Of a stretch of 64,000 bases of DNA, positions 1,590-61,394 are shown in pieces. The notes under the pieces are model-generated. The model had not been told where the DNA came from and made no database searches. It was given only the letters and a program-made list of their open reading frames with translations. A program made the translations under genes and the position numbers. Each line of letters opens with the position of its first letter. The first letter of the stretch is position 1. The DNA lies in the NCBI GenBank assembly GCA_949284445.1, contig CASDVP010000007.1, positions 19,107-83,106 of the forward strand. Direction: 5' to 3'. This DNA is from an uncultured Bacillota bacterium (GTDB taxonomy: Bacteria; Bacillota_I; Bacilli_A; RFN20; CAG-288).

Positions 1590-2247
1590 AAAGATCAGTT
1601 GCGGTGCGTTGATGTTGTTAGCAGGATTATCACTCGTCGGTTGTACTGAAACTTCATCCGTCGATAGCGGTGTATTTTCAACACCTTTACCCACAGGTGT
1701 GAATGAATATGTCATGGAAGCTGAATACATCGACTTAACTGATGTCAAGGGTGCCGGATTATCTAGTGAACAATCCGGTGTCGATATGATTTATGGCGAT
1801 GGAACTGATGCTCAAAAAGAATTAGGTTGGAGTGAAGGCTACTATATCGGTTATACCTATAGTATTCAGACTAAATTAGATTTTGTTTTCACAGCTACAA
1901 CTGCTGAGACAGCGACTTTTGTCTTGAGACTAGGCTCTGAATTAGGAGATTTGAATATCACTCCTGATGATATGGAAGTCGCTTTAAATGGTGAACCTAT
2001 CAGCTACGGAAGCATATATGTTGCTAATAGTGAATCAATGGCTCAGATGAAGTTCTATGACAAAACTTGCGGAACTAATTTGAACCTTAAACAAGGCGAA
2101 AACACTTTGTCTATCAGCATCAAGGAAAATAGCCTTCGTGGAAATGGAACAGGTGGTCCTTGCATCGATTGCATCAAGATTCAAACTAAGGCAGAAGTAA
2201 AATACACAGCTCACACTGATAATCCAAGTAAACGTGGACAAATCTAA
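1576..2247 (+). CDS. Surface lipoprotein with a C-terminal beta-sandwich domain, putative carbohydrate-binding.
   Basis: The signal peptide has a lipobox (LLAGLSLVGC). GAAAGGAG lies 12 nt before the ATG at 1576, so I prefer that start over the track start at 1537, which overlaps the upstream gene by more than 50 nt. The C-terminal region (..LNGEPI..NLKQGENTL..GGPCIDCIKI) resembles the C-terminus of the 41841..42857 protein. Confidence 0.6.
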   Translation: MNKIKKISCGALMLLAGLSLVGCTETSSVDSGVFSTPLPTGVNEYVMEAEYIDLTDVKGAGLSSEQSGVDMIYGDGTDAQKELGWSEGYYIGYTYSIQTKLDFVFTATTAETATFVLRLGSELGDLNITPDDMEVALNGEPISYGSIYVANSESMAQMKFYDKTCGTNLNLKQGENTLSISIKENSLRGNGTGGPCIDCIKIQTKAEVKYTAHTDNPSKRGQI

Positions 2248-2275
2248 AAGATTATTGAGATAAAACTTTTCCTAA

Positions 2276-2310
2276 AATGACCACTGACTGAATAGCCAGT
2301 GGTCTTTTTT
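2276..2310 (+). terminator. Rho-independent terminator.
   Basis: Stem GACCACTG...CAGTGGTC followed by TTTTTTTT, directly after the lipoprotein stop codon. Confidence 0.7.
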
Positions 2311-2318
2311 TTGAGCTT

Positions 2319-2978
2319 TTATTTTTTGAAATTGATATCGCCTTTATAACTGGTTTTATATCCGGGATTTTCATCAGGTCTTAAGGCGTTAGGATATAAG
2401 ATGTCTTGCTTGATATCATTGGCGATCTTTTGAAGTTGACCATAGATGAAGTAAGGATCACTGATATCTTCCATGATGGCTTTAGTAGTATCAGCTGTGA
2501 TATAAATATCACCTACTTTACACATTCTTTCAATCAAACCAATTTTGAGGTTGATACTGGTGATAGAACTATAAAAGATGCTTTGAATATTTGAACCTAT
2601 CAAACCGTTTTTTATGATGATCCTTTTATCTGTAAAGGCGTATTCCTCTCTTCTTTGTCTTTTGCTAGCAGTTATGATACTGACTATCCATATCCAGACA
2701 GGTATGAGATGTAAGGAAAAGAAAATGACTAGTATCAAAATCAACCACCAATCTAGCTTTGGCATATTAATTGCAATCATAGCGATAGCAAAACCATCGA
2801 ACAATCCCCAGATCAAAGCGATGAAGAAAAACTTAAAAAATGCAGATAGAATGAATGATAGACGTTTAGGTTTACTTCTCCAAAGGATCTGTTCATCCGC
2901 TGATAAAACAGATTCGATAGTAGGATCATAATCGACATTATTCGATTTGATAAAGTACTTTTCATCGACTCTTTTCAT
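2319..2978 (-). CDS. Membrane protein with a bacterial PH-like domain (YdbS/YdbT, bPH_2/DUF304-like).
   Basis: Two TM helices are followed by FTDKRIIIKNGLIGSNIQSIFYSSITSINL...GDIYI, typical of bPH_2. The likely start is the internal Met (MKRVDEKYF); the track ORF begins 18 codons upstream. Confidence 0.55.
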   Translation of the reverse strand: MKRVDEKYFIKSNNVDYDPTIESVLSADEQILWRSKPKRLSFILSAFFKFFFIALIWGLFDGFAIAMIAINMPKLDWWLILILVIFFSLHLIPVWIWIVSIITASKRQRREEYAFTDKRIIIKNGLIGSNIQSIFYSSITSINLKIGLIERMCKVGDIYITADTTKAIMEDISDPYFIYGQLQKIANDIKQDILYPNALRPDENPGYKTSYKGDINFKK

Positions 2979-3072
2979 AATTCTCTTAGCCTCATAATTA
3001 TTGTAAAGGAAAAAGTAGAGTTGACAAAACACTTTTAACTATTTCTATGAAAGGTATTTAAAGTTTGCTACA

Positions 3073-4449
3073 TCAGTGTAAAGATGTTCTGATCAATTTT
3101 TTAAATAGATTAGATTTATAAGGCTGATATCTCATCGGCAAATCAATGATCTGTTTTTTATCGACAATACTTTTTAAATGGCTGAAAGTATCAAATCCGG
3201 TCTTTCCGTGGTATGAGCCCATTCCTGAAGTGCCAACTCCTCCAAAGCCCATCTCACTATTAGCCAAATGGATCACCACATCATTGACACAACCACCTCC
3301 AAAACTGACATGACTCAAAGCGTGGTCAATGATCTTTTTATCATTAGAAAAGATATAAAATGCTAGTGGAGTAGGATGCTTTGAAATGATGTCAAAAGCT
3401 TCATCGTAAGTTTTAAAAGTGATGATAGGAAGAATAGGACCAAATATTTCTTCTTGCATAACTTTATCTTCAAGAGTCACATCTTGTAATACAGTAGGTT
3501 CTATTTTTAATGTTTCTTCATCATAAGAACCACCGATGATCACTTTCTTTTCATCGATCAGATTTAAAAGTCGCTTAAAATGTTTTAAAGAGATGATTTT
3601 CCCATAGTCTTTATTTTTTAATGGCTCTGGACTGAATTGTTTGATCACTTCTTCCTTTAAATAGGTGACAAATTCATTTCGGATATCTTCTTGACATAAA
3701 AGATAATCAGGTGCGACACAAGTCTGTCCACAATTGAGAAACTTGCCAAATACGATGCGTCTAGCTGCTAACTTCAAGTTTGCAGTCTTATCGATAATAC
3801 ATGGACTTTTACCACCTAATTCTAACACACAAGGTATCAGATTATTCACAGTGCTCTTCAAAACTATTTGGCCAACATTTTGTGAGCCTGTAAAAAAGAT
3901 GAAATCGAATTTTAAGTTTAATAATTCAGTTGCAACACTAGCATCGCCTAAAACGACTTCTACTTCGTCTGGGCTGAAAGTTTCAGCGATGATCTTTTTA
4001 ATGATTGCAGAAGTGTTAGGGGAATATTCCGATGGTTTTAAGATGACAGTGTTCCCAGCAATCAATGCATCTACTAAAGGCTCTATAGAAAGTAAAAACG
4101 GATAATTCCAGGGGCTGATGATGAGGGTGTTTCCAAAGGGAGATGGTAAGACATAACTTTTTGAATAGAATTGGGATAGAGGAGTATGAACACGTCTTTT
4201 CTTAGCAAATGATCGACCATGTTTAATAAAATAGGTTATTTCAGATTTGACTAAGCCGATTTCAGACATGTAAGATTCAAATTGACATTTTCCTAAATCG
4301 GTTTTTAATGCAGCGCTTATCTCTTCTTCATATTTATCGATGATTTGATATAGTTTTTTTAGTTTCTTTATCCGTTCTTTAATGTCTAATGTAGAACCTG
4401 TTTTAAAGTATGTTCTTTGTTTTTCTAAAATAAGATTTAAATCGCTCAT
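3073..4449 (-). CDS. NAD(P)-dependent aldehyde dehydrogenase, ALDH3-like.
   Basis: 458 aa carrying the ALDH motifs LELGGKSP (catalytic Glu) and FLNCGQTCVAPDY (catalytic Cys). Confidence 0.85.
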   Translation of the reverse strand: MSDLNLILEKQRTYFKTGSTLDIKERIKKLKKLYQIIDKYEEEISAALKTDLGKCQFESYMSEIGLVKSEITYFIKHGRSFAKKRRVHTPLSQFYSKSYVLPSPFGNTLIISPWNYPFLLSIEPLVDALIAGNTVILKPSEYSPNTSAIIKKIIAETFSPDEVEVVLGDASVATELLNLKFDFIFFTGSQNVGQIVLKSTVNNLIPCVLELGGKSPCIIDKTANLKLAARRIVFGKFLNCGQTCVAPDYLLCQEDIRNEFVTYLKEEVIKQFSPEPLKNKDYGKIISLKHFKRLLNLIDEKKVIIGGSYDEETLKIEPTVLQDVTLEDKVMQEEIFGPILPIITFKTYDEAFDIISKHPTPLAFYIFSNDKKIIDHALSHVSFGGGCVNDVVIHLANSEMGFGGVGTSGMGSYHGKTGFDTFSHLKSIVDKKQIIDLPMRYQPYKSNLFKKLIRTSLH

Positions 4450-4645
4450 AACAGACCTCGTTAATCATATTCAAAGCAACTGATATTAAGTCTAAATGAC
4501 TTTTATATTATATAGAAATTATCGTTTGTATTCAAATTGTAAAGAACTTTTTATTATCAGTTATTTATGTATTTACAAATAAAATAAATTATCATATTAC
4601 AAATTTATAGCTATGCGGTATACTATTAAAAAAGAGGAGAGATAT

Positions 4646-5620
4646 ATGAAAAAATCTATCTTATATTTATGTTTGCCGTTACTGCTTTTAGGTTTAAGCT
4701 CTTGTGATTCTACTGGTGGTGGTTCTGACACTACCAATACCAAACCTATCAGTGGTACTAATAACAGCAGTGGAACGACTGAAAAACAAGCTGAAGATTT
4801 CACGATTAAAACTTCAGATAATGGCTTGTCTGCTGATACAAGCAGTTATACTTTTGCTAATGCTGAAGAAGGTGATGATTATCCAGATGCCGTTATCGCT
4901 TTGACAACTGATCAAACTTGGCTTCATTGCACGGGACTCAACGAAAACTACACCAAAATCATCATCGAAGATGAAACTGTTTTACCGAAGGATTCGGTCA
5001 CGATGCATACGGTCTTAAACAGAGATATCGTCGGTGCTAGTGGTTCAAATGATATCGACGGCATCAATTTGATCTTAGATAGAAAATTGATAAAGCCTGG
5101 TGATAGTAAATTAAAATTACAAGTCAGACCGTCAAATGGAAGCTCTTCTATCGCTAAGACAACCACTATTTGTGTAGATGTTCATGTCAAAGAATTCGGC
5201 ACGATTATGGTTGATACTTATGATGTTGATGTCAAAGTCAATCTTGATGGCTTAGCTGACACGATTAAAAAAGAATCTGAAAATCCTACCTCTATAACAT
5301 TAAGTATCACTGATTCATCAGATAGAGAAGAAGTTTATGGCTATTCTGCTGATTATAGTTCTCAAACTGATATTCCGTTAGCTGAGATCCCTGCTGAAAT
5401 CAGTGTATCTGACATCAAATATGCAGTAGGTCATACCTACAAAATGTTTATTTTTGTAGAAGGTGAAAAAGTCAGTGATAGAATTTGGCTTTCACTCAAA
5501 GCAAGTTCCACCACTGATGGCTATTCAATCAGATCTGAAAGTGCTAGTCAAAGCATTTTAGAAGTCACTAAAGACGGAGTCACTGTTGAAGCTGAAATAG
5601 ATACTTATCTAGCTTTATAA
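4646..5620 (+). CDS. Surface lipoprotein, hypothetical.
   Basis: AAGAGGAGAG RBS before the ATG at 4646. Signal peptide with lipobox LLLGLSSCDS. Ser/Thr/Gly-rich linker. Confidence 0.6.
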   Translation: MKKSILYLCLPLLLLGLSSCDSTGGGSDTTNTKPISGTNNSSGTTEKQAEDFTIKTSDNGLSADTSSYTFANAEEGDDYPDAVIALTTDQTWLHCTGLNENYTKIIIEDETVLPKDSVTMHTVLNRDIVGASGSNDIDGINLILDRKLIKPGDSKLKLQVRPSNGSSSIAKTTTICVDVHVKEFGTIMVDTYDVDVKVNLDGLADTIKKESENPTSITLSITDSSDREEVYGYSADYSSQTDIPLAEIPAEISVSDIKYAVGHTYKMFIFVEGEKVSDRIWLSLKASSTTDGYSIRSESASQSILEVTKDGVTVEAEIDTYLAL

Positions 5621-5653
5621 TTCAATAACTCTTTATTATCTTAAGTATCAGAT

Positions 5654-5702
5654 ACCGATGAACGCTCTGTTATCATCAAGAGATTCATCGGTATTTTTAG
5701 TT
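5654..5702 (+). terminator. Rho-independent terminator.
   Basis: ATACCGATGAA...TTCATCGGTAT stem followed by TTTTT. Confidence 0.6.
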
Positions 5703-5839
5703 GTCATGTTTTTTAAGATTAGAGTAAAAAATGAATTAGGCTATATTTAAAAAATGACAACTTATAATTATCAAAATTGCTAATAATTATTTGACTTTTG
5801 AAAAAGCTAAATTTATCATTTTATTAACTGAAGGGGGCT

Positions 5840-7612
5840 ATGAAAATGGATAAATTAGTCATTAATCTTAAAAGAATTCTTGAACTGAGGAATATACCTT
5901 ATAAACAGTTCTTAGTGGATATTTGTAGAGAAATTTTAGCTAATGAACCGACAAAATCAGAAAATACATGTTACGAAATGGCTGAAAAAGAAAAAGCTAA
6001 CTTTTCCAATATGCTTAAAGGCGCTAGACCGCTTAGTAAGGCTTTCTATATTCCGATAGAAAAAGTGCTCGGTATATCTCTAGCTTCAATTTGTGATGGA
6101 ACTTTTGAGAAAGGGCTATTTATAAATAAAGGGCTACGTTATACAGCTAGCTTAGATGATTATCAAAAATATTGTGAGCTATTTGAGGAAAAGAGCAATG
6201 ACCATGAAGTCATAAGAGAAGTATGGCAAAATTATGATGAATATGACAATAATCTTTTGACGTATATTTTACAATATCAGTCTTTAGAAGGCTTAAAAGC
6301 TTTGCATGATAAAAAGGGTGCTAAAGTTGATTACTGTAATACACATTTGAATATATTAAATGGCTTTAAAGATGAAGTTTCTGATATTCTCAGTCTTATT
6401 TGTTCAAAGGATTCAGATGAGGTTTTTAATCAATATTTTGATATTTATCAGACATTCATAGACAATTCGTTTGATAAAGATTGGCTTGGGTTGCTGTCAG
6501 ATGAAAAAAATATGGACCAAATCTTAAAAGCCCAGAAAATATTATCAAGTATTCTTAATGACAGAAAAGTCAAAGTTAGTGAGCTCAATCCACGAAGAGG
6601 GATTAATGATGAAAAAGAAGTTATGATAGCAAGTCCATATATCTATTATCTTTTGAACTTTGCACTTAAACATTGTGATACCTATTTAGAACAAGCAAAA
6701 CAGATGATTCGTCATGGAATTTCTTACAATAAAAAGCTGAATAAGTTTTTAGAAAATAATACTGATTATTCTTATTGTAGAATAGAGGATAATGGGACCA
6801 TTTATAATGGCGTCTTGCTTTATGGAAATATCATTACTTATAAACTGGAGACTCAGACAAATTTTGATCATGAAATAGAAATGCTACTAGATGATTTGAA
6901 TAAAACTATCAATGAGATAAAGTTTTATGATAAGCCTAAGACAGGTGGTCTCTCATTAAAAGGTGTAAGAATTGTAAATGGAAATTTATTGAAAGCTCAT
7001 TCTGGCAATGAAGTCGAATATGAGTTCTTACAAAAAGTTGAAAAATATGATTTACCATTCATTCCTAAGCTGATATCGGTTAACGATAAATTCGATACTT
7101 TTACCTATTTTAAAGGAAATTCTTTAAGCTATGATTACACAGATTCTTGTTCTTTAGAAATTATTAAACAAGTCATAGAAGCCATCAAAAAGAAAGATGA
7201 AGTTTCAAAGGAAATTCTTGGCAATAATAAAGTGTATGTCCATGCTGATCTTTCTCTTAGAAATATGATTTTTGATAAAAATGAGTTTGTTGGATTTATT
7301 GATTGGGATACTGCACATATCGGTGATGAAAGTGAGGATCTTATATATTCTATTTGGCAACTTTTAAATATAGGTAGTCTAACGAGAAATAATAATTTAT
7401 TGTATGATCGATTTAAGCAAGCAATATCTTTTTATAAACCTTCAAAGGAGCTCAAACATAATTTTGCTGATAAGATGATCCTAGTTATGAATAATGTCAT
7501 CAAAGGAACTTCAAACGATAATCCTAATTATCAACGCATATATGAATGGGTAGGTTGGAGCAAGATTTGGGTTGAATTATTTAGAGATAAGATTAAGCAG
7601 GATATCGGATGA
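5840..7612 (+). CDS. Fusion protein: N-terminal XRE-type HTH, a central helical region, and a C-terminal APH/CotS-like kinase fold (phosphotransferase family).
   Basis: The N-terminus (LKRILELRNIPYKQFLVDI...NMLKGARPLSKAFYIPIEKVLGISL) looks like an HTH_XRE domain. The C-terminus carries a Brenner-type catalytic loop (VHADLSLRNMIF) and an IDWD/DFG-equivalent (GFIDWDTAHIGDESEDL), as in aminoglycoside/choline kinase-like enzymes. The stop overlaps the next gene by 4 nt. Confidence 0.6.
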   Translation: MKMDKLVINLKRILELRNIPYKQFLVDICREILANEPTKSENTCYEMAEKEKANFSNMLKGARPLSKAFYIPIEKVLGISLASICDGTFEKGLFINKGLRYTASLDDYQKYCELFEEKSNDHEVIREVWQNYDEYDNNLLTYILQYQSLEGLKALHDKKGAKVDYCNTHLNILNGFKDEVSDILSLICSKDSDEVFNQYFDIYQTFIDNSFDKDWLGLLSDEKNMDQILKAQKILSSILNDRKVKVSELNPRRGINDEKEVMIASPYIYYLLNFALKHCDTYLEQAKQMIRHGISYNKKLNKFLENNTDYSYCRIEDNGTIYNGVLLYGNIITYKLETQTNFDHEIEMLLDDLNKTINEIKFYDKPKTGGLSLKGVRIVNGNLLKAHSGNEVEYEFLQKVEKYDLPFIPKLISVNDKFDTFTYFKGNSLSYDYTDSCSLEIIKQVIEAIKKKDEVSKEILGNNKVYVHADLSLRNMIFDKNEFVGFIDWDTAHIGDESEDLIYSIWQLLNIGSLTRNNNLLYDRFKQAISFYKPSKELKHNFADKMILVMNNVIKGTSNDNPNYQRIYEWVGWSKIWVELFRDKIKQDIG

Positions 7613-8955
7613 TGAAAAACAGTATCAAAAAAATATTTCAAAACCTAAAATATTTTGATTGGCATTTATATTTTGTACTTATATTTGTCGCTTTATTTCC
7701 TGCTATTTTACAAACAGTCAGAACCTATTTCTTATCTTCGGCGATTGATGTCAGTGAGTTTGATATTTTAGGTCAAATGGAATGGTTTGACCTTTTCAAT
7801 GAATGTATCATCGCAATGTTGATCATTCCTTTATATTCCATACTTAATACGTTTTTAAAAAATGATTCTGATCTTTTTCCAAAGCAAGTATTTAAAGCAG
7901 GAATCACTGTCGTTATTGTTTATGGTGCATTTTCAGGAATCATGTATGCATATGCAAAAAATGTGGTCAGATTTATGAATCCTGATGAATTCAAAATCGA
8001 TCAAATTGTCAGCTATCTAAATATGGAAACAATCGCATTTGTGCTTGGCATCATCATTCAATTTGCAAATGTCTGTTTTATCATTCTAGGAAAAACACAA
8101 AATTTCTACATTTATACTATATTAAATTCTATTCTTCTCATTTTTACTGATTATTTGTTAATTCCCAATTACGGCGTAAATGGTGTCGCTTATTCAAACA
8201 TCGCAATTAATGGTGTGCTTGCTATAGGGATGATTGTCTTATTGGTGTCAGAACATAAAATTCAGCCAAGCTGGTTTGATAAAAAAGATAAGAAAATGTA
8301 TAGCGATTGGGCAAAGATAGGTAGTGCCTCTTTATTTCAATCCGTTTTGGACAATTTGATCTATATTCTAATGGTCGTAAAAATGGTTAATTCGGCATCT
8401 AGTGCTGGCAATTATTGGATAGCTAATAACTTCATTTGGTTATGGCTTTTAATCCCTGTTACAGCACTAGCCGAGATCATTAGAAAAGATTGCATAAACG
8501 GATATAACGGTTTGAAACAGAGCAATTATTATATGATATTATGCTTTATATTTATTATATGGCTTTATTTAATTCCTTCCTGGAAGCCATTCTTTCAAAA
8601 TGTAGAAAAATTGGAGAACTATTCTGAAATTTATGATATCACGTTTAAATTGTTTTGGTTTTATATTGCTTATGCTCTTTCTGTAGTTCCGGATAATATT
8701 TTTATTGGTTTAGGAAAAACTAAATATTCATTTCTTAATTCTTTTGTAGTCAATGTCATCTATTATGGTATTTTCTATTTGGCATATGTGACAACCGGTT
8801 TTAAGATGACAATTGATATCATCATCATGATGTTTGGATTTGGGATGGTAGTCCATTTGATTGTTAGTCTTCTTGAAGAAAAGATACTCTTAGTAAAAGA
8901 GTTACGTAACTCGAACAATAAGGAGGAGAATAACCTATTCATAAAAGGGGGTTAA
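7609..8955 (+). CDS. Polytopic membrane protein of the MOP (MATE/Wzx/MurJ-like) exporter superfamily.
   Basis: 448 aa with roughly 12 predicted TM segments. It contains the GVNGVAYSNIAINGVLAIGM motif. An ATGA overlap with the upstream kinase-like gene suggests translational coupling. Confidence 0.5.
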   Translation: MMKNSIKKIFQNLKYFDWHLYFVLIFVALFPAILQTVRTYFLSSAIDVSEFDILGQMEWFDLFNECIIAMLIIPLYSILNTFLKNDSDLFPKQVFKAGITVVIVYGAFSGIMYAYAKNVVRFMNPDEFKIDQIVSYLNMETIAFVLGIIIQFANVCFIILGKTQNFYIYTILNSILLIFTDYLLIPNYGVNGVAYSNIAINGVLAIGMIVLLVSEHKIQPSWFDKKDKKMYSDWAKIGSASLFQSVLDNLIYILMVVKMVNSASSAGNYWIANNFIWLWLLIPVTALAEIIRKDCINGYNGLKQSNYYMILCFIFIIWLYLIPSWKPFFQNVEKLENYSEIYDITFKLFWFYIAYALSVVPDNIFIGLGKTKYSFLNSFVVNVIYYGIFYLAYVTTGFKMTIDIIIMMFGFGMVVHLIVSLLEEKILLVKELRNSNNKEENNLFIKGG

Positions 8956-9237
8956 TACGAAGAAAGAGTAAATATATTTAGCAGCACTATTGTTTATCTT
9001 TTTTTAAATTTATTTCCTTTGTTTTTCATTAATCAAATCGTAATCTGATTTATCGCCTGCTTTTTAAGTATTGTCCCAAAACTTTAAGAAGTCCCAATAA
9101 GAAGTCTCAAATAGTATTAAACTCTTGCTAGAGTTCTTGCTTTTTATTTTCAAGGTTGCCTAAATAGTTATTTCTACTGCCTAATCTTTCATGAGCATCG
9201 TAGCTATTTTTCAATATTAAATATCGGAATATATACT

Positions 9238-9276
9238 TTATAACCGTAAAACTTTTAAATTTAAAAATTTTTACGA
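9238..9276. repeat. Degenerate copy of the palindromic element ATAACCGYAAAACTTTTAAATTTAAAAAYTTTTRCG. A second copy lies at 10519..10559.
   Basis: Sequence ATAACCGTAAAACTTTTAAATTTAAAAATTTTTACGATTAG. The 10.5-kb copy is a perfect 12-bp-stem hairpin. The two copies flank the ATPase gene at 9277..10491. Confidence 0.6.
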
Positions 9277-10491
9277 TTAGATTGTTTTCAATATATTTTC
9301 ATTTAATAAGAAATCAAAAATGTTTATCATCTTATATCCTTTTTCTAATCTAGTAAAAGGATTGTCATCAGCTGTTATGATCACTTTTTTATATCCATCA
9401 TCTAACCCTTTAAATGCTGATAATTCTCTTTCTTTAGTGTCAGGATCTTCAATGGTTAAAGAAATTTGAATATAGTATTGGTCATCAGATGTTTTTACAA
9501 CAAAGTCGATCTCTTTGGAATTATTTTTTCCAATATCAACTACGTAATTACGTCTGATAAGCTCTAAAAAAACTAAATTTTCTAAAATGTGTGTCATTTC
9601 AATTTGACGAAAATTGATCTTTTCATTTCTTAAACCTAAATCACATGCATAATATTTGTTCAGTGTTTTTAGATATTCTTTTCCTTTTAAGTCATATCTA
9701 GAAGTTTTATAAAATAAGAAACTATCGCAGATATACTTCAAATAATAGGAAATAGTTTCATTATTGACTGTCTTATAATTATTTGATTTCAAAGTATTTG
9801 CAATCTTGTTAGGGGAGACAACAGATCCTACCTGTGAACATAGTAATTCTAATAATGAATTAAATAATGAGGCATTTTTAATTTTGTTTCGTTCAACTAT
9901 ATCTTTAAAACCGATTGTTTCATTCAGCATTTTTAAATAATCGATTTTTTCATAAGCCTTATCTAATGTGGATATATATGGCATTCCACCATACATGATA
10001 TATTCTTTGAAGGTTTGCTTTATATCCCCACCTCTATGATCATAAAACTCTTTAAAAGATAGGGGATATACTTTTATTTCAATCCCTTTTCCACGCAATT
10101 TGGTATTTATTTCACTAGAAAGAAGCTTGGAATTAGAGCTGGTAATGTATAAATCGCAATTGAAATCGATTTTAATACCGTTGACTAAGTCTTCAAAATT
10201 ATCGATCAATTGAATTTCATCGATGAAAATATAATATTTGTTATCATCGATGATGCGTTTATTGATGTAATCATATAAAGCATTTATGTTTCTGAGATTT
10301 GTAAACTTATTGGATTCTAAATTTATTGATATAATGTGATTTTTATCGATGCCACTATCAATCAGATATTTATAGTATATTTCAAATAGTAAATAAGATT
10401 TTCCACAGCGTCTTATCCCAGTGATTATTTTTACGATGTCTTTATCTTTGTAGTCTATTAATTTTGAAAGTAACAGATCTCTTTTGATCAT
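9277..10491 (-). CDS. AAA+ ATPase of the COG1373 type (AAA_14 N-domain plus a DUF4143-like C-domain).
   Basis: Walker A GIRRCGKS and Walker-B-like YIFIDEIQ. The C-terminal EIDFVVKT...YYIQIS segment is typical of the DUF4143 restriction-endonuclease-like region. Confidence 0.7.
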   Translation of the reverse strand: MIKRDLLLSKLIDYKDKDIVKIITGIRRCGKSYLLFEIYYKYLIDSGIDKNHIISINLESNKFTNLRNINALYDYINKRIIDDNKYYIFIDEIQLIDNFEDLVNGIKIDFNCDLYITSSNSKLLSSEINTKLRGKGIEIKVYPLSFKEFYDHRGGDIKQTFKEYIMYGGMPYISTLDKAYEKIDYLKMLNETIGFKDIVERNKIKNASLFNSLLELLCSQVGSVVSPNKIANTLKSNNYKTVNNETISYYLKYICDSFLFYKTSRYDLKGKEYLKTLNKYYACDLGLRNEKINFRQIEMTHILENLVFLELIRRNYVVDIGKNNSKEIDFVVKTSDDQYYIQISLTIEDPDTKERELSAFKGLDDGYKKVIITADDNPFTRLEKGYKMINIFDFLLNENILKTI

Positions 10492-10744: not shown

Positions 10745-12184
10745 CTATTTTAATGGTTTTAACATCGTCTTTAAATCGATCAAATGAAGCCTATGATCAG
10801 CAACTTTTCTTAAAGAACTATCGAATCCATTTGCTCCGAACAAATAGAACTCAACATTTTTGTAATTTGATAGAGATGGTACAGATATATCTTCACACAT
10901 ATCTTTATAGTCTTGATAAGTTCTTTCCTGTTTAGAAAATTTTGATTTTCCGATAAGTAAATTATCACCAGCAGTACCGACAATATCTAGCTCTATACTT
11001 CTTCCTAAATTTTTACTATTTATATTCAAATTTTCAAATTGTTGGTAGAAAGTTTGTAGTCTTCCTTTTTTATTAAGAAAATTTAGATAAGTCATGCATT
11101 CTTTCTCGAAAGCATGTTCTATAAATTCTTTTATAGCATTTTCGTATTGCTTTCTTATGACTTTTCCAGCTCCGCTTTTAATCCATTCAACATTTCCTCT
11201 AATAAAGCGATAAAAGAATGCCATCATTTGATCAAAAATTTCATAGTGAACATCTCTTTTAGAATGAAAAGAAGATCTTCTAATCAACACGTTATCTTCG
11301 ACAAGTTGAGATACATATTTAGTTATTTTGCTACTATCTTCTGAAAAAAAGAGACTTAGATCTTTTATAGTATCATAGCCTTCACTAATAGCTTTGATGA
11401 TTGAAGCATATAAGCCACCAGTTGCTACATCAGAGGTAATAACTTTGCTAGGATCGTCTGCAAAAATAGCAGTTCTATCAAAAAAGAGACGATTCATATT
11501 GTCGTTGAAACTCTTGCTAGTATCTATCAGTGAAAGATAATATGGGAATGTGTTAGTCAATGCTAAAAACTTAGCTTTTTCCAAAAGATCTTTCACATCG
11601 GATAATGCTGAGATAGCTTCATCAAATTCAAATTTGTTTAGTAATAGTTGAAAGGTGTTTCTTTTGTAAAGAGGTGCCTTACTATCTTGAATTTCTTTTT
11701 CCATAAATGAAACATTACTTCCAGTTAGAATAAGAGTGAATTTTCCTTTTCTAAATAACATATCTATAGCTTTTTGAAGCGAAGAAGTGAAATCAGTTTT
11801 CTTTCTTTTGCCGTCTCTAGTCAGAATGAGATTCGGATATTCATCAATGACTAAAAGTCCTTTTTCATCCCCAAAATATTCGTTTACACTTTCAAAAAAT
11901 GCATTCCAATCTGTATATACTCCACTAGAATAACCTAAAAGCCTATTTAATTCTCTAGAGAAAACTAATCTATTATCAAGATCTTCACTATCAGTTGCAA
12001 AAAGAAAGAGTGATTTTTCCCCTTCAGCTAGCATTTGCATCAAAGTTGTTTTACCGATTCTTCTTTGCCCATAGACATATCCAAATTCAAAACGATCACT
12101 ATCATAAAAACTATTAAGCAATTTAAGTTCTTCTTTTCTTCCATAATATCTTTTCATACAGCAACTCCTATCAGAATATGTCAT
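10745..12184 (-). CDS. AAA+ ATPase of the COG1672 type (Arch_ATPase N-domain plus a DUF234-like C-domain).
   Basis: Walker A GQRRIGKTT and Walker B LLVIDEYPNL. C-terminal ..IELDIVGTAGDNLLIGKSKF, as in the DUF234 PD-(D/E)xK-like region. The true start is probably the internal Met (MKRYYGRKEEL). Confidence 0.7.
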   Translation of the reverse strand: MTYSDRSCCMKRYYGRKEELKLLNSFYDSDRFEFGYVYGQRRIGKTTLMQMLAEGEKSLFLFATDSEDLDNRLVFSRELNRLLGYSSGVYTDWNAFFESVNEYFGDEKGLLVIDEYPNLILTRDGKRKKTDFTSSLQKAIDMLFRKGKFTLILTGSNVSFMEKEIQDSKAPLYKRNTFQLLLNKFEFDEAISALSDVKDLLEKAKFLALTNTFPYYLSLIDTSKSFNDNMNRLFFDRTAIFADDPSKVITSDVATGGLYASIIKAISEGYDTIKDLSLFFSEDSSKITKYVSQLVEDNVLIRRSSFHSKRDVHYEIFDQMMAFFYRFIRGNVEWIKSGAGKVIRKQYENAIKEFIEHAFEKECMTYLNFLNKKGRLQTFYQQFENLNINSKNLGRSIELDIVGTAGDNLLIGKSKFSKQERTYQDYKDMCEDISVPSLSNYKNVEFYLFGANGFDSSLRKVADHRLHLIDLKTMLKPLK

Positions 12185-12578: not shown

Positions 12579-12593
12579 ATTTAACAAGATAAT

Positions 12594-12667
12594 TGACCCT
12601 AACGGGATTCGAACCCGTGGATGCAGCCTTGAGAGGGCTGAGACTTAAGCCGCTTGTCGATAGGGCC
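12594..12667 (-). tRNA. tRNA, 74 nt, no encoded CCA. By my hand fold the anticodon is CUC (Glu).
   Basis: Minus-strand sequence GGCCCTATCGACAAGCGGCTTAAGTCTCAGCCCTCTCAAGGCTGCATCCACGGGTTCGAATCCCGTTAGGGTCA. The acceptor stem is GGCCCTA/TAGGGTC with a G-U pair. T-arm is ACGGG-TTCGAAT-CCCGT. The anticodon stem is CAGCC/GGCTG with loop CTCTCAA. The D-loop contains GG. The anticodon assignment is less certain than the tRNA call itself. Confidence 0.75.
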
Positions 12668-12736
12668 ATCAAGCGCCTTAATAATATAAATTAAAGAAGT
12701 GAATTAAGCAAGTATTATTATAGTTGAATCAGTTGA

Positions 12737-13558
12737 CTAAATTGGTGTTTGATCATGATTTATCAGACTTTTAATAGAAATTATTTCTTCGATAATTGCT
12801 TTAAATGACATAAAGCAAAAAGCGGTGATACACAAAGTGAAGAAGCATTGTGATAGGGAGTGATTAGAAAACATTTTTCCACTCATATCTGAAAAGCCTA
12901 TTGTTGTAAACAGAATTATAGAAATAGTGATCAGAAAGATGTTGATGATAGATATTGTTATGAAACGATGTAGCTTGTTGTTTGAATTTTGCTTTATCAG
13001 TATTAGCAATGGAGATGAGAATAGCGACAGCGCACTTATCGCTATCAGCCAAGATGGTCCTAAAAAATTGTTTTCTACACTATACATAATTAGGTTAGAA
13101 ATGACCATGAGATTTGATGCCATTCCAAAACTATATTCAGTGATCAGCAAGTGATAAGTTTTTCTATCATTTGAATGATAAGTCTTCAGTTTAATAAAAG
13201 CTGGTTTATAAATGAAGAAGAAAATAATCAAAAATTCTATGCAAGCCAAAATGCCTAAAATATAAAGAATAGTTGAACCAAAAGAGTTGAAGGACAGAAA
13301 ACCTAAAATCATAAAAGGTAGTAATAATATGACCTCTTTAATAATTGATATTATGAAATACAAAATTTGGATATTTTCTTTGTCTCTATATGCATAAACA
13401 TAAAGTGTTTGTAAACAACATAAAACAATGACCGGAATGAAGAAGAGAAGCGTGATAGATGAAAAAGACGTTATTAAAAAGTAGATGAAATAAATCAGTA
13501 ATAGAAATGTGATCAGTGAGTTGATGGTGAATAGCATGATATTTTTTAGATTTTTCAT
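12737..13558 (-). CDS. Polytopic membrane protein, hypothetical.
   Basis: 273 aa with 7-8 hydrophobic segments and no recognisable motif. Separated by only 4 nt from the upstream gene at 13563..14849. Confidence 0.45.
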   Translation of the reverse strand: MKNLKNIMLFTINSLITFLLLIYFIYFLITSFSSITLLFFIPVIVLCCLQTLYVYAYRDKENIQILYFIISIIKEVILLLPFMILGFLSFNSFGSTILYILGILACIEFLIIFFFIYKPAFIKLKTYHSNDRKTYHLLITEYSFGMASNLMVISNLIMYSVENNFLGPSWLIAISALSLFSSPLLILIKQNSNNKLHRFITISIINIFLITISIILFTTIGFSDMSGKMFSNHSLSQCFFTLCITAFCFMSFKAIIEEIISIKSLINHDQTPI

Positions 13559-13562
13559 ATAT

Positions 13563-14849
13563 CTATATTTTGTTATAGACTACACTAAAAGTATATTCTG
13601 TTTTAGATAAATTGTTTGCAGCAGTTATATATCTTACATTAGTATCATTAACCCAAGAGAATGTGATTGAAGTAGCTGACCAATTTTGATAGATATCTAC
13701 TGTGTTTGATTGGCGAGCTGCTAATTTAAAACTTTTAATATCTCCTAATCCTTCCCAATCTCTAGCGTGTTCTTCAAAACACATTTTAGTATTGTACTCA
13801 ACAGTAATGTCAAAATTATTAGGATTGAATACTTCAATAGTCCAAAAACTACTGTTCCACCAGAATTTATCAGTAAAATCATATAAATGGAGTTGTAAAA
13901 AATTATCCATAGCTATTGATATCGAAATGGTATTTATACCTCTAGTTAAATCAACTGGTAAGCATGGCATAGTTTTTGGATTAAACTTATAATTATAAGT
14001 AGAGACGATGTCTAATCCTGCATAGTAATAGGCAGCAAAAATAAGTTCAGAACAATACCAAGAAGGGGAATTGATATCCGTTCTTGTATATTTAAACTCA
14101 AGTGGATTCGGCTCATATGGCTTGCCTAATTGCTGTGAGATAAATTCTTTTGCGACTTTAGTAGCACCTAATTCACCCGCTCGATAAATTCTGTAGATTG
14201 TAACGCCGTAGTCCAAAACTCTTGTATCATCTACAAAGCCATATTGCACGCCACCAGCAACAGCTTCAACTGTTTGGATATAATTACCATAATCACTATC
14301 CTTCGAGTTATTATAAACAAATGCCACATGTTTTAAATCAAAACTGGCCATAGCTTCAAAAACTATGTCACCAGTTTGGATTACTGAATAATCATAGTTA
14401 GAGTAAACTGGTTTTCTTTTAAAATATTTTTTATTTGTTTTATTTGGCTCTCCAATGTCACTATCTAATATATAATTTGCATCTGTAGAGCTAGAGTTGG
14501 AACTAGCACTTAGAGGATTTATAAATGGATAATCATTTGAACATAAAAAAATGATAAATTCATCAATTGAATACTGGTGCTCATAGTACAAATCAACAAA
14601 CATATCATAAGAGACAGGTTCGAAATCTGTATTTTTTTCTAAATAAATATCATAATAATATTCAAATAAGTCAAGATAACTAAAGACTTCTTCACCAGTA
14701 TATTTTTGTGTTTTATTATTCTGGTTTGTTTTTCTTATATTCGAAACAACTTTATTAGAGGCGCATTCATTCTTGCTTGTAGATAAATTTGCAGAACCAA
14801 GAGTCAGCAAAGAGGTAAACACAAAGAAAATAAATTTTGTATTTAACAT
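13563..14849 (-). CDS. Secreted protein with a permuted papain-fold (NlpC/P60-superfamily, YiiX/YaeF C92-like) amidase/acyltransferase domain.
   Basis: N-terminal signal peptide (MLNTKFIFFVFTSLLTLGSANLS). The order TGDIVF...HVAFVY (His) then ...SPSWYCSELIFAAYYYAG (the YCSE Cys motif) places His before Cys, as in permuted NlpC/P60 members. Confidence 0.5.
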   Translation of the reverse strand: MLNTKFIFFVFTSLLTLGSANLSTSKNECASNKVVSNIRKTNQNNKTQKYTGEEVFSYLDLFEYYYDIYLEKNTDFEPVSYDMFVDLYYEHQYSIDEFIIFLCSNDYPFINPLSASSNSSSTDANYILDSDIGEPNKTNKKYFKRKPVYSNYDYSVIQTGDIVFEAMASFDLKHVAFVYNNSKDSDYGNYIQTVEAVAGGVQYGFVDDTRVLDYGVTIYRIYRAGELGATKVAKEFISQQLGKPYEPNPLEFKYTRTDINSPSWYCSELIFAAYYYAGLDIVSTYNYKFNPKTMPCLPVDLTRGINTISISIAMDNFLQLHLYDFTDKFWWNSSFWTIEVFNPNNFDITVEYNTKMCFEEHARDWEGLGDIKSFKLAARQSNTVDIYQNWSATSITFSWVNDTNVRYITAANNLSKTEYTFSVVYNKI

Positions 14850-15094: not shown

Positions 15095-16144
15095 ATGAGC
15101 GAAGAAGAGAAGAAAGAAGTCGAAACTACTGCCCCTGCTACTGATGTCATGGCTAGCACAGTCCATGCTGAGACTGATAGAGTTGTCAGTCCTAAAACCT
15201 TATTAGATGCCGGTTGCCATTTCGGACACCGTGTCTCTCATTGGAATCCGAAGATGAGACATTTCATCTATGGCAAGAGAAACAATCTCCACATCATCGA
15301 TTTAAACAAGTCTGCTGAACAGATTCAAACCGCTTATCATGCTTTAAAGGACATCGTTTCTAAAGGTGGTAAAGTCTTATTTGTCGGCACTAAAGCCTAT
15401 GCTCAAAAAGCTATTCAAGAAGAAGCTGTTCGTTCTGGTTCTTTCTATGTCTCACATAGATGGTTAGGCGGAACTTTGACCAACTTCAGAACTATCTGCA
15501 AACGTATCGCTTTACTCAAAGAGATCGAACAAGAAGAATTGACTGGTGGTTTTGATAACCTCTCCAAGAAAGAAGTCGCTGAAAAGACCAAGTTAAAGAA
15601 CAAGCTCAGCCAAAACTTAGAAGGTATCAAAGAGATTAGATTACTTCCTAACGCTTTAGTCGTTGTCGATCCTAAGACTGAACACAACGCTGTCGCTGAA
15701 GCAAGAGCATTACATATCCCTGTTTTCGCTTTAGGTGATACCAATACTGATCCTGATGAGATCGATTATTTGATCCCTGCTAATGATGATGGCGAAGCTT
15801 CTATCCGCATCGTCGTCGGTTTATTAGCTGATGCTGTTGTCGAAGGTAAAGGCGGTGAACCCTTATATGCTTATAAAGATGCTGAAGCTGCTTCTTCCAC
15901 TATGGCTGAAATGCTCAAAGCTGTCGATCCTAATGAACAGATCAAATCCATCCGTTCTAAGCTCAGAGATGATGCTATCGCTATGAGAAAGAGCGCTAAA
16001 GGTGGAAGAGTCGTCAGAAGAAAAGTTAATAAGAATTTTAAAAAAGCTCCTGCTAGAAGCAAAGAAGCTAACTCTGCTGAAGCTCCTGCAACTGAAAAAC
16101 CTGCTGAGACTACTGCTGAAGTTAAAACTGAGGAGAGCAAGTAA
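15095..16144 (+). CDS. rpsB: 30S ribosomal protein S2, with an N-terminal extension of about 30 aa and a C-terminal Lys/Ala/Glu-rich extension of about 90 aa.
   Basis: S2 core (LLDAGCHFGHRVSHWNPKM...VSHRWLGGTLTNF). AAAGGAGG RBS 7 nt before the ATG. TAATG overlap with tsf. Confidence 0.95.
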   Translation: MSEEEKKEVETTAPATDVMASTVHAETDRVVSPKTLLDAGCHFGHRVSHWNPKMRHFIYGKRNNLHIIDLNKSAEQIQTAYHALKDIVSKGGKVLFVGTKAYAQKAIQEEAVRSGSFYVSHRWLGGTLTNFRTICKRIALLKEIEQEELTGGFDNLSKKEVAEKTKLKNKLSQNLEGIKEIRLLPNALVVVDPKTEHNAVAEARALHIPVFALGDTNTDPDEIDYLIPANDDGEASIRIVVGLLADAVVEGKGGEPLYAYKDAEAASSTMAEMLKAVDPNEQIKSIRSKLRDDAIAMRKSAKGGRVVRRKVNKNFKKAPARSKEANSAEAPATEKPAETTAEVKTEESK

Positions 16145-60768: not shown

Positions 60769-61394
60769 GAATCATTAATTATCCTGATGGTCGAAAAGCA
60801 GTTGTCAAAAAGGAAAAGCCTTCAAAAGTTGACCGTCGATTGACTGAAAACAAAACCGAATCTGAACGGATCAGAGATAGTATGATCAAAAGAAACATGG
60901 GCATGGCATTTGAGTCCGATGTTTCTAAAAGCTGCGATTTTTATCGTGAAAAAGGACTGGCTGATATTTATAAAAGACCGACGCCTATCAAAGTTGTCAA
61001 AATGAGTAAAACTAAAAAAGGAATGATTGAAGAAGCATATTTCCAAGAGAAATCCACCACTGATTATGTCGGTATTTATAAGGGAAAATATATCGATTTT
61101 GAATGTAAAGAGACCATTCATGATGAAGTTCCTTATCATATGATCAGAGAACAACAATTTCGTCATTTGGAACTCATCACCAAATTAGGTGGGATCGGTT
61201 TCTTTTTGGTTTCATTTAAAAAAGTTCAAGAAGTTTATCTGATGCCAGCGACTATCATTCTAGAAGAGATCAAATTGAAAAAGCATCCCGGTTTTAAAAG
61301 ACAATTCTTTCAAGAGCACGGTGTTTTAGTCAAACGATCTTATTTACCGCCTTACTTGCTTTTAGAGGCGATAGATGAAGCTTTCTTCAATTAG
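60765..61394 (+). CDS. recU: Holliday junction resolvase RecU.
   Basis: YKRPTPIKVVKMSK...AYFQEKSTTDYVGIYKGKYIDFECKET matches the RecU catalytic core. Confidence 0.8.
   Translation: MRIINYPDGRKAVVKKEKPSKVDRRLTENKTESERIRDSMIKRNMGMAFESDVSKSCDFYREKGLADIYKRPTPIKVVKMSKTKKGMIEEAYFQEKSTTDYVGIYKGKYIDFECKETIHDEVPYHMIREQQFRHLELITKLGGIGFFLVSFKKVQEVYLMPATIILEEIKLKKHPGFKRQFFQEHGVLVKRSYLPPYLLLEAIDEAFFN

Follow-up and report, generated by a model that had tools for sequence, protein, structure and literature searches.

A putatively autoregulated helix-turn-helix-kinase gene overlapping a MATE-like transporter gene in a low-GC accessory island of an uncultured Bacillota bacterium

Two overlapping open reading frames (ORFs) were analyzed in a 64,000-nucleotide (nt) stretch of DNA from an uncultured gut Bacillota bacterium (contig CASDVP010000007.1, positions 19,107 to 83,106; hereafter the window). 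ORF1 (5840–7612, + strand) encodes a protein of 590 amino acids (aa) with a predicted N-terminal helix-turn-helix (HTH), a middle domain, and a C-terminal kinase domain, and ORF2 encodes a predicted membrane protein of 448 aa. Together they are a conserved mobile operon in a low-GC accessory island of the defense-island type. A preliminary description of this locus had reported the two frames, their ATGA overlap, and the ORF1 motifs HADLSLRNMIF and GFIDWD, and all of these are present in the DNA as described. Coordinates of the features discussed below are collected in Table 1.

Table 1. Features of the operon, its surroundings, and related loci. Positions refer to the window unless the locus of a relative is named.
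Feature	Position	Strand	Basis or remark
Perfect 11-nt inverted repeat ATACCGATGAA...TTCATCGGTAT with T-run	5652–5694	+	Inverted-repeat search, sequence
Distal operator-like site AGTTGTCAT (inverted copy of ATGACAACT)	5699–5707	-	About -140 from start codon
Operator-like site ATGACAACT	5754–5762	+	About -85 from start codon
Promoter-like TTGACT-17-TATCAT, 10/12	5791–5819	+	Consensus match only
Shine-Dalgarno-like GAAGGGGG	5826–5833	+	Sequence; 6 nt before ORF1 ATG
ORF1 aa 1–92, divergent XRE/Cro-C1-type HTH	5840–6115	+	AlphaFold2, hhalign, weak fold matches
ORF1 aa 96–365, ~270 aa, mostly helical, ankyrin-like repeats	6125–6934	+	AlphaFold2, conservation, Ank_5 match in one relative
ORF1 aa 370–590, compact APH/Bud32-like kinase	6947–7609	+	Pfam, PDB profile matches, Foldseek
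Catalytic loop H468-A-D470-LSLR-N475	7241–7264	+	Hidden Markov model alignment
D488-W-D490	7301–7309	+	Hidden Markov model alignment
ATGA overlap, ORF1 stop/ORF2 start	7609–7612	+	Translational coupling
ORF2, divergent MOP/MATE-superfamily membrane protein	7609–8955	+	NCBIfam NF045539, hydropathy
AAA_14/DUF4143 ATPase	9277–10491	-	PADLOC PDC-S01, 453 bits; island cargo, outside operon
ATPase_2/DUF234 ATPase	10745–12184	-	PADLOC PDC-S27, 134 bits; island cargo, outside operon
tRNA-Glu(CTC)	12593–12668	-	Within low-GC stretch, 3' end toward kinase/MATE/ATPase block
273-aa protein	12737–13558	-	Low-GC gene; unmatched in Pfam, NCBIfam, PADLOC, PHROGs
428-aa protein	13563–14849	-	Low-GC gene; sub-threshold Peptidase_C92 (permuted papain-like amidase)
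PtpB-like phosphatase-DEDDh fusion	L010 3402–5879; L008 3959–6514; L016 12963–15542

The gene 5' of ORF1 (4613–5620) codes for a lipoprotein (lipobox LLLLGLSSC), and the inverted repeat that follows it is probably its terminator; a simple terminator scan had passed over this repeat, whose loop is 21 nt. Because the lipoprotein gene ends in a hairpin and T-run, ORF1 and ORF2 appear to be transcribed on their own as a two-gene unit. A Shine-Dalgarno-like AGGA lies 7 nt 5' of the ORF2 start, promoter and terminator calls between ORF1 and ORF2 did not rise above the level of shuffled sequence, and an Rfam scan of 5400–9500 returned no riboswitch or other family. Among relatives, the junction of the two genes is usually either an overlap of 1–4 nt or a gap of 17–18 nt. 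The ORF1 protein occurs in five near-identical strain variants with the gene intact in all, and one strain carries the same gene arrangement on a 200-kb contig. Genetic code 4 (TGA = Trp) was considered and rejected, since translation of all homologues stops at the same ...DIG residue and table 11 leaves the ORFs intact.

The N-terminus of ORF1 had been described as an XRE-type HTH, and this holds at the level of predicted fold. The AlphaFold2 (AF2) model has five helices in this region (aa 3–16, 21–32, 41–59, 67–77, and 81–86), with predicted local distance difference test (pLDDT) values of 82.9 for full ORF1 and 84.3 for the N-terminal part. Pfam and NCBIfam returned nothing for aa 1–100 alone (Pfam at E ≤ 10), and none of 94 relatives matched the Pfam models HTH_3, HTH_19, or HTH_31 at E ≤ 0.01. 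A family profile built from 90 sequences was aligned with hhalign to a template of eight canonical XRE HTHs, of which seven were entered by hand and one was a Pfam-positive protein from locus L009. This gave a probability of 88.8% (E 2.5e-6, 69 columns), compared with 0.1% for the reversed template and no more than 0.8% for twenty column-shuffled templates. The alignment contains an insertion of ~17 aa directly before the recognition helix (EKEKANFSNMLKGARPL). The helix with EKxNFSKMLKGxRPL is the most conserved segment family-wide, and the recognition helix is near-invariant, with N54 and F55 invariant in close relatives (A1) and F55 near-invariant across the family (A5). Phage Cro/CI-type repressors in BFVD matched partially by Foldseek (probability 0.85–0.96, template modeling (TM) score 0.6–0.73 by target), at non-significant E values of 1.5–3, and one kinase-less relative matched phrog_4, annotated as a transcriptional repressor. 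As modeled, the N-terminus is XRE-like by fold and profile and lies outside the Pfam models, and we infer that it would bind DNA in a sequence-specific manner.

Candidate binding sites for such a protein occur upstream of the gene. The upstream regions of the ORF1 gene family share a constant arrangement of TGAC(A/T)AC sites: relative to the start codon, an inverted GT(T/A)GTCA lies between about -131 and -140, and direct copies lie near -80 (-78 to -86) and near -60 (-55 to -64). The copy near -60 (TGACTAC in relatives) overlaps the TTGAC(A/T) -35 element. Sites of the form TGAC[ATC]AC/GT[ATG]GTCA number 1.97 per 360-nt upstream region and 0.076 in control windows from the same loci, a 26-fold difference, and at least one is present in 57 of 60 non-redundant upstream regions. 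Heptamers like GTTGTCA are ~20-fold over-represented in eight non-redundant full-length loci (11 versus 0.5 expected), and the same heptamers were counted 56 times in 51 kinase-less loci (3.3 expected). Clusters of at least two sites were found in 8 of 80 MATE-like loci and lie immediately upstream of an HTH-kinase gene in five of these eight. The window has both the distal inverted site and the site near -85, and its -35 element doubles as a degenerate third copy (TGACTTT). With a conserved site array and an invariant recognition helix, autoregulation by the protein's own HTH is the simplest reading, which suggests that the array is a putative autoregulatory operator. In a look for covariation between the helix and the A/T variants of the operator, the helix proved almost constant, and single regions contained both variants. 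A pair of TGACAACT at 60800/60992 was dismissed as chance, since it lies inside the RecU coding sequence. Two more TGAC(A/T)AC-type sites ~43 nt apart (8746–8795) are located in the 3' end of the MATE-like gene and may also be due to chance.

The C-terminus of ORF1 is, as judged from sequence, an APH-fold kinase and not a recognizable resistance enzyme. Pfam APH (PF01636) matched with 42.5 bits (gathering threshold 23.2) over aa 445–506 only, corresponding to profile positions 154–211 of 239, and was also matched by 23 of 94 relatives. The HADLSLRNMIF and GFIDWD motifs, previously cited for this domain, coincide with the catalytic loop and with the Mg-binding Asp, respectively, when aligned with APH(2'')-IIa, and the catalytic Asp and Asn (D470 and N475) are present on proper alignment. 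In a hidden Markov model alignment, K385, E393, H468, D488, and D490 are likewise intact. The family profile matched APH(2'')-IIa and -Ib in the PDB with the N-lobe aligned as well, and VHGDLSPRN...GFIDWD paired with VHNDFSANN...GVIDFGD of APH(2''). By structure, the best Foldseek PDB match was 3HAM (APH(2'')-IIa, E 8.9e-6), followed by 2PPQ, 5UXD, and Bud32 4WWA, with modest TM scores of 0.42–0.46 by target. Matches to the AF2 model at E ~1e-5 were to APH(2''), homoserine kinase, MphH, choline kinases, and the minimal kinase Bud32, and RIO1 was also among the matches of this domain. NCBIfam resistance models (APH(3'), APH(2''), Cph, and Mph equivalogs) scored 15–22 bits against cut-offs of 205–625.

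The small-molecule kinases of the APH family (APH(2'')-IIa 3HAM, MphH, and homoserine and choline kinases) thus share with ORF1 a bilobal fold, the HxDxxxxN loop, the Mg-binding Asp in (I/V)D(W/F)(D/E), and the N-lobe Lys/Glu. They differ in that ORF1 aligns with them by sequence in the catalytic core only, has a kinase domain of ~220 aa instead of 260–300 aa, and joins this domain to an HTH and an ankyrin-like region. The domain has the size of Bud32 or RIO and may therefore lack the helical substrate-binding insert of antibiotic kinases. Pfam searches of the 94 relatives returned only APH, PHP, DUF1679, EcKL, TCAD9, and Ank_5, and neither HipA_C nor Couple_hipA matched ORF1 or any of the 94. 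The catalytic loop reads HGDLSPRN in three strain variants, HADLSPRN in one, and HADLSLRN in the window, with Asp and Asn retained throughout; these strain differences could reflect drift or a tuning of activity.

ORF1 had been presented as a two-domain protein. The HTH and the kinase both stand, and a third domain of ~270 aa between them had gone unmentioned. Helices predominate in its AF2 model, with a few hairpins, and a D133-E134-x7-Y142 motif is almost invariant across the family. Neither Pfam nor NCBIfam returned a match for aa 101–370 alone, although Ank_5 of Pfam was matched by one relative. Foldseek found no significant structural neighbor for the middle domain, and the top non-significant matches were ankyrin-repeat proteins and the RRNPP regulators PlcR, PrgX, ComR, and NrpR. 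RRNPP proteins were also the top PDB matches for aa 1–367 (PlcR E 0.15, PrgX 0.35, range 0.15–3, TM ~0.2), again non-significant. Like ORF1, the regulators of this Bacillota family have an XRE-type HTH followed by a helical-repeat domain of ~250–300 aa. The significant TPR-type peptide-binding similarity that would indicate RRNPP membership was not found in ORF1, whose repeats look ankyrin-like rather than TPR-like, whose C-terminus carries a kinase, and for which no pheromone gene was identified. The middle domain also occurs without the kinase in proteins of ~360 aa.

ORF2 had been called a MOP/MATE-type protein with 12 transmembrane segments, and this assignment remains probable at the superfamily level. 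The NCBIfam model NF045539, 'MATE family Na+-driven efflux transporter', matches it end to end with 338.2 bits, just below the cut-off of 350, and Kyte-Doolittle hydropathy gives ~11–12 transmembrane segments. A GQxEWFDLxxE motif (aa 55–65) is invariant in the ORF2 family. The family is large: when 7,380 candidates were scored, over 1,100 clusters belonged to it, most of them ~50% identical to ORF2. Pfam MatE (PF01554) did not match ORF2 and matched 8 of 29 relatives weakly (best E 1.4e-4). Searched against PDB sequences, the ORF2-family profile found no solved MATE, MurJ, or Wzx structure, and hhalign of the family against a single, partial canonical MatE protein, the one template used, gave 1.2%. 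One MATE-like relative is named 'O-antigen/teichoic acid export membrane protein' by JGI. ORF2 is accordingly described here as a predicted, divergent MOP/MATE-superfamily protein that is not placed in any MOP subfamily. It resembles known MATE/MOP transporters (NorM-type pumps and Wzx/MurJ flippases) in its predicted ~12 transmembrane segments and its NCBIfam name. Unlike them, it belongs to a family whose genes are repeatedly found near those for nucleases, an IetA-like AAA+ protease, and HTH proteins. The MATE-like gene is split into two ORFs in L009 (5951–7272) and L017 (11719–13037) next to an intact kinase gene, as a result of either a frameshift or an assembly error.

We searched for relatives of ORF1 and identified ten by word-indexed search and 436 clusters (50% identity) at E ≤ 1e-3 by exhaustive profile search. 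Wherever a full-length relative has the K-E-H-D-N-D-D signature, a MATE-like gene lies downstream in the same orientation. This pairing, whose conservation elsewhere the preliminary description had left to be checked, occurs in ~11 distinct lineages with kinase identity down to ~30% (the window and loci L001, L004, L008/L016, L009, L010, L014/15/17, L079/L097, L106, L109, and L170). The two genes are immediately adjacent except in L079/L097, where a 585-aa gene lies between them. One lineage (P0010), in which the catalytic Asp is lost (KEHQNND), is without a MATE-like gene, and in a pseudokinase lineage (VFHNIGQ) an extra 149-aa gene precedes the MATE-like gene. Many members of the ORF1 family are pseudokinases or have no kinase at all, and an active-looking kinase is present in about one-third of scored matches. 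From this distribution, kinase activity would appear to be functionally tied to the membrane protein.

The same distribution bears on the possibility that the pair is an artifact, made up of a chance overlap, a miscalled HTH, and a dead kinase. The absence of a Pfam HTH and an ORF2 score just under the NCBIfam cut-off are what such an artifact might look like. It is contradicted by the pairing in ~11 lineages, the confident models, the controlled hhalign comparison, the intact catalytic residues, and the recovery of the protein in five near-identical strain variants on contigs of up to 200 kb, and we regard it as hardly credible.

Two kinds of fusion involve these domains. In P0238 (557 aa), the C-terminal half of a MATE-like protein is fused to a kinase domain; as a singleton from one contig, it is weak Rosetta-stone evidence. 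In P0230, P0232, P0252, and P0269 (~500 aa), a kinase domain is fused to a PHP/TrpH phosphoesterase.

An envelope-related role would account for part of these data. In such a role, the MOP protein would move a sugar, a choline-like head group, a lipid-linked precursor, or a nucleotide, the APH-type kinase would phosphorylate it, and the HTH would adjust expression. Parallels would be LicA with TacF in pneumococcal choline teichoic acids and the AmgK-type anomeric sugar kinases. The APH fold spans choline, sugar, and homoserine kinases, one relative matches Choline_kinase, and one MATE-like relative bears the teichoic acid export name given above. The tight ATGA coupling and the P0238 fusion would also fit, and the PHP/TrpH fusions hint at phospho-ester or nucleotide chemistry. 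Against this, P0238 stands alone, the loci examined have no conserved cytidylyltransferase, glycosyltransferase, or other pathway gene nearby, and genes for envelope biosynthesis seldom have so patchy, mobile, and island-borne a distribution. We consider this role improbable.

The genes that accompany the pair in relatives point in another direction. In most close relatives, a third gene downstream of the MATE-like gene codes for a protein of 825–859 aa with an N-terminal Y_phosphatase3 domain (157 bits; PDB relatives 8DHI, M. tuberculosis PtpB) and a C-terminal DEDDh exonuclease (Table 1). It is split into proteins of 343 and 514 aa in L001, and no description of a Y_phosphatase3-DEDDh fusion was found in the literature. 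In a more distant lineage, its place is taken by a gene for a 518-aa protein whose relatives include a family with the HEPN-like motif RNxxxH. Neither a third gene nor a remnant of the phosphatase-exonuclease was found in the window. A MobL relaxase and a serine recombinase lie beside one kinase-MATE cassette.

The HTH and middle domain also precede several unrelated genes as a module without the kinase. These ~360-aa proteins are widespread in metagenome-assembled genomes labeled Clostridia, Erysipelotrichaceae, and Bacilli, and occasionally in other phyla. Downstream of them are zinc-ribbon membrane proteins with phage PHROG matches (21 loci), a 213-aa nucleotidyltransferase with weak CD-NTase similarity, or a HEPN-like protein, and one such gene directly follows a holin at a prophage end. 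Within this group, a family of ~361 aa (L018–L095) has a near-identical recognition helix across distant taxa and the same upstream array; examples of kinase-less genes are L092 10001–11089 (Sporofaciens musculi) and L078 (Catenibacterium mitsuokai).

MATE-like genes recur beside an IetA-like AAA+/FtsH-type protease, DEDDh exonucleases, and other HTH proteins. In L161, L164, and L165 (e.g., L165 3956–5281), a soluble FtsH-like AAA+ metalloprotease (IetA models, 91.6 bits) precedes the MATE-like gene, and a DEDDh exonuclease follows it in L161 and L164. This arrangement of AAA+ protease, MATE-like gene, and exonuclease is possibly another cassette around the same membrane protein. PADLOC matches among the partner genes were to IetA, DEDDh, and, weakly, a cyclase.

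Our preferred interpretation, held tentatively, is that ORF1-ORF2 is an autoregulated module for conflict with phages or mobile elements, or for stress. A conflict or stress role is suggested because nucleases and phosphatases are companions, because the HTH and middle-domain module is swapped onto other effector-like genes, because the kinase domain often loses catalysis, and because the neighborhoods are dominated by defense and mobile-element genes. In the proposed mechanism, the HTH would bind TGAC(A/T)AC operators 5' of its own promoter, which in the window would be the two operator-like sites of Table 1 and the degenerate -35 copy, and would autoregulate the operon. The ankyrin-like and kinase parts would read a signal and alter the regulatory state, through autophosphorylation or phosphorylation of a partner that, in most relatives, the PtpB-like phosphatase could reverse. 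The MATE-like protein, made in step with ORF1 by way of the ATGA overlap, would be the membrane output, acting as an exporter or as a membrane effector.

A more specific version of this proposal, which we consider doubtful, is a hitherto unrecognized system of gut Bacillota directed against phages or mobile elements. When complete, it would have three genes, for a sensor-regulator kinase, a MOP effector or signal exporter, and a phosphatase-exonuclease, and its HTH-ankyrin module would be a general regulator or sensor that could be swapped across HEPN-like, CD-NTase-like, and zinc-ribbon effectors.

Several observations weigh against the conflict or stress role and the parts of the mechanism. 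The turn of the HTH carries an uncommon insertion, and the domain matches no Pfam model. The operator motif contains the -35 consensus TTGACA, so that its enrichment may partly reflect promoters, and another factor could bind the sites. The window copy has two substitutions in the catalytic loop (HADLSLRN versus HGDLSPRN elsewhere) and is missing the phosphatase-exonuclease gene. Small-molecule kinases are the best matches of the kinase domain. Most MATE-like genes also occur without such a kinase: 45 of 56 loci with enough upstream DNA (~80%) have no ORF1-type protein upstream and 11 have one. PADLOC-DB v2 gave only a 12-bit DpdH match for ORF1 and none for ORF2, and the association with defense islands is qualitative. 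PHROGs gave no meaningful match for either protein.

The preliminary description had suggested a unit for small-molecule sensing, phosphorylation, and export. In this reading of drug phosphorylation and efflux, the kinase would phosphorylate an antibiotic, toxin, or metabolite, the ligand would relieve HTH repression, and the MATE-like pump would export the compound or its product. The nearest kinase matches are APH(2''), capreomycin/viomycin, macrolide, homoserine, and choline kinases, and NCBIfam names the ORF2 family a MATE efflux transporter. Many kinase-less MATE-like members lie beside MarR-like regulators and ABC exporters, neighbors that make them look like ordinary efflux pumps. The operator motif is compatible with a repressor, and autoregulated regulator-pump pairs are the norm in efflux systems. 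Detoxification is nonetheless disfavored by the low scores against the resistance models, by a kinase of only ~220 aa with Bud32 and RIO1 among its matches, and by the many members that are pseudokinases or kinase-less. In most relatives, the phosphatase-exonuclease or HEPN-like partner would be superfluous for it, and the defense and mobile-element neighborhoods do not favor it. Drug phosphorylation with efflux therefore appears unlikely, and we rank the conflict or stress module above it because of the companions and neighborhoods. Overall, the evidence leans away from simple antibiotic resistance.

The preliminary description had noted no characterized protein with this fusion. An HTH-kinase fusion has been characterized in HipH/YjjJ, in which an N-terminal HTH is joined to a HipA-type Ser/Thr kinase (PMC8262856), so the statement holds only for the kinase family found in ORF1. 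HipH/YjjJ and ORF1 both combine an HTH and a protein-kinase-like domain in one polypeptide, and the HTH is probably self-regulatory in both. HipH/YjjJ differs in having HipA_C instead of APH, in being monocistronic, and in having no middle domain and no transporter partner. By analogy, ORF1 could be a growth-inhibiting kinase restrained by its HTH and middle domain or by the phosphatase, one that stabilizes the island or aborts infection with the MATE-like protein as a co-transcribed passenger. Such a toxin would have precedent in the HTH fusion to a toxic kinase (PMC8262856), and the genes are mobile, island-borne, and putatively autoregulated. The phosphatase partner could be an antidote, and the strain substitutions in the catalytic loop could reflect attenuation. 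The HipA Pfam domain is absent, however, and the fold family differs. The near-obligate link between an active-signature kinase and a MATE-like gene speaks against a passenger, and the gene remains intact in five strain variants even though the window copy comes without a phosphatase. We judge a toxin of this kind to be quite unlikely.

CapK-CapS, a regulator module upstream of bacterial immune operons (PMC13373217), is another parallel in organization. In both CapK-CapS and the ORF1 family, a kinase and a DNA-binding repressor (putative in ORF1) are located upstream of varied effector genes in defense islands. The folds are unrelated: CapK belongs to the anti-sigma-type (HATPase) kinases, CapS is a STAS protein, and the two are separate polypeptides. 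By this analogy, the ORF1 family may regulate its downstream genes.

Literature searches found no publication on the ORF1 family, and it has no dedicated Pfam or NCBIfam model. If the interpretation is correct, it would be a new family of one-component regulators in gut Bacillota, as large as the cluster count given above and with an operator site predictable from sequence alone. The strict link between an intact kinase and a MOP/MATE protein, to which a phosphatase-exonuclease is often added, suggests that phosphorylation controls a membrane function in defense islands. This would be either a new defense system with an unusual 12-transmembrane component or a new mode of efflux control. In resistome surveys of gut metagenomes, caution would be warranted before such genes are annotated as aminoglycoside phosphotransferase or multidrug efflux.

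The operon had been placed in an accessory region between a lipoprotein gene and ATPases, and the surroundings agree with this. The lipobox marks the gene on one side, the matches on the other side are to PDC-S01 and PDC-S27, which are candidate single-gene defense families in PADLOC, and GC content is 0.26–0.31 across ~5.5–15 kb compared with 0.38–0.42 in the flanks. The tRNA-Glu(CTC) gene in this stretch is a possible integration site of the island; a comparison of the tRNA-Glu region with 2000–9400 turned up no att-like repeat of 11 nt or longer. Ribosomal protein S2 (15095–16144, + strand) has 349 aa with a C-terminal extension of ~100 aa and scored 235 bits against the NCBIfam 'sunset domain variant' model (cut-off 710). 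A tandem 13-nt direct repeat, TAAGAAGTCCCAA/TAAGAAGTCTCAA, is located at 9085–9110, within the 320 nt that separate the MATE-like gene from the convergent AAA_14 gene.

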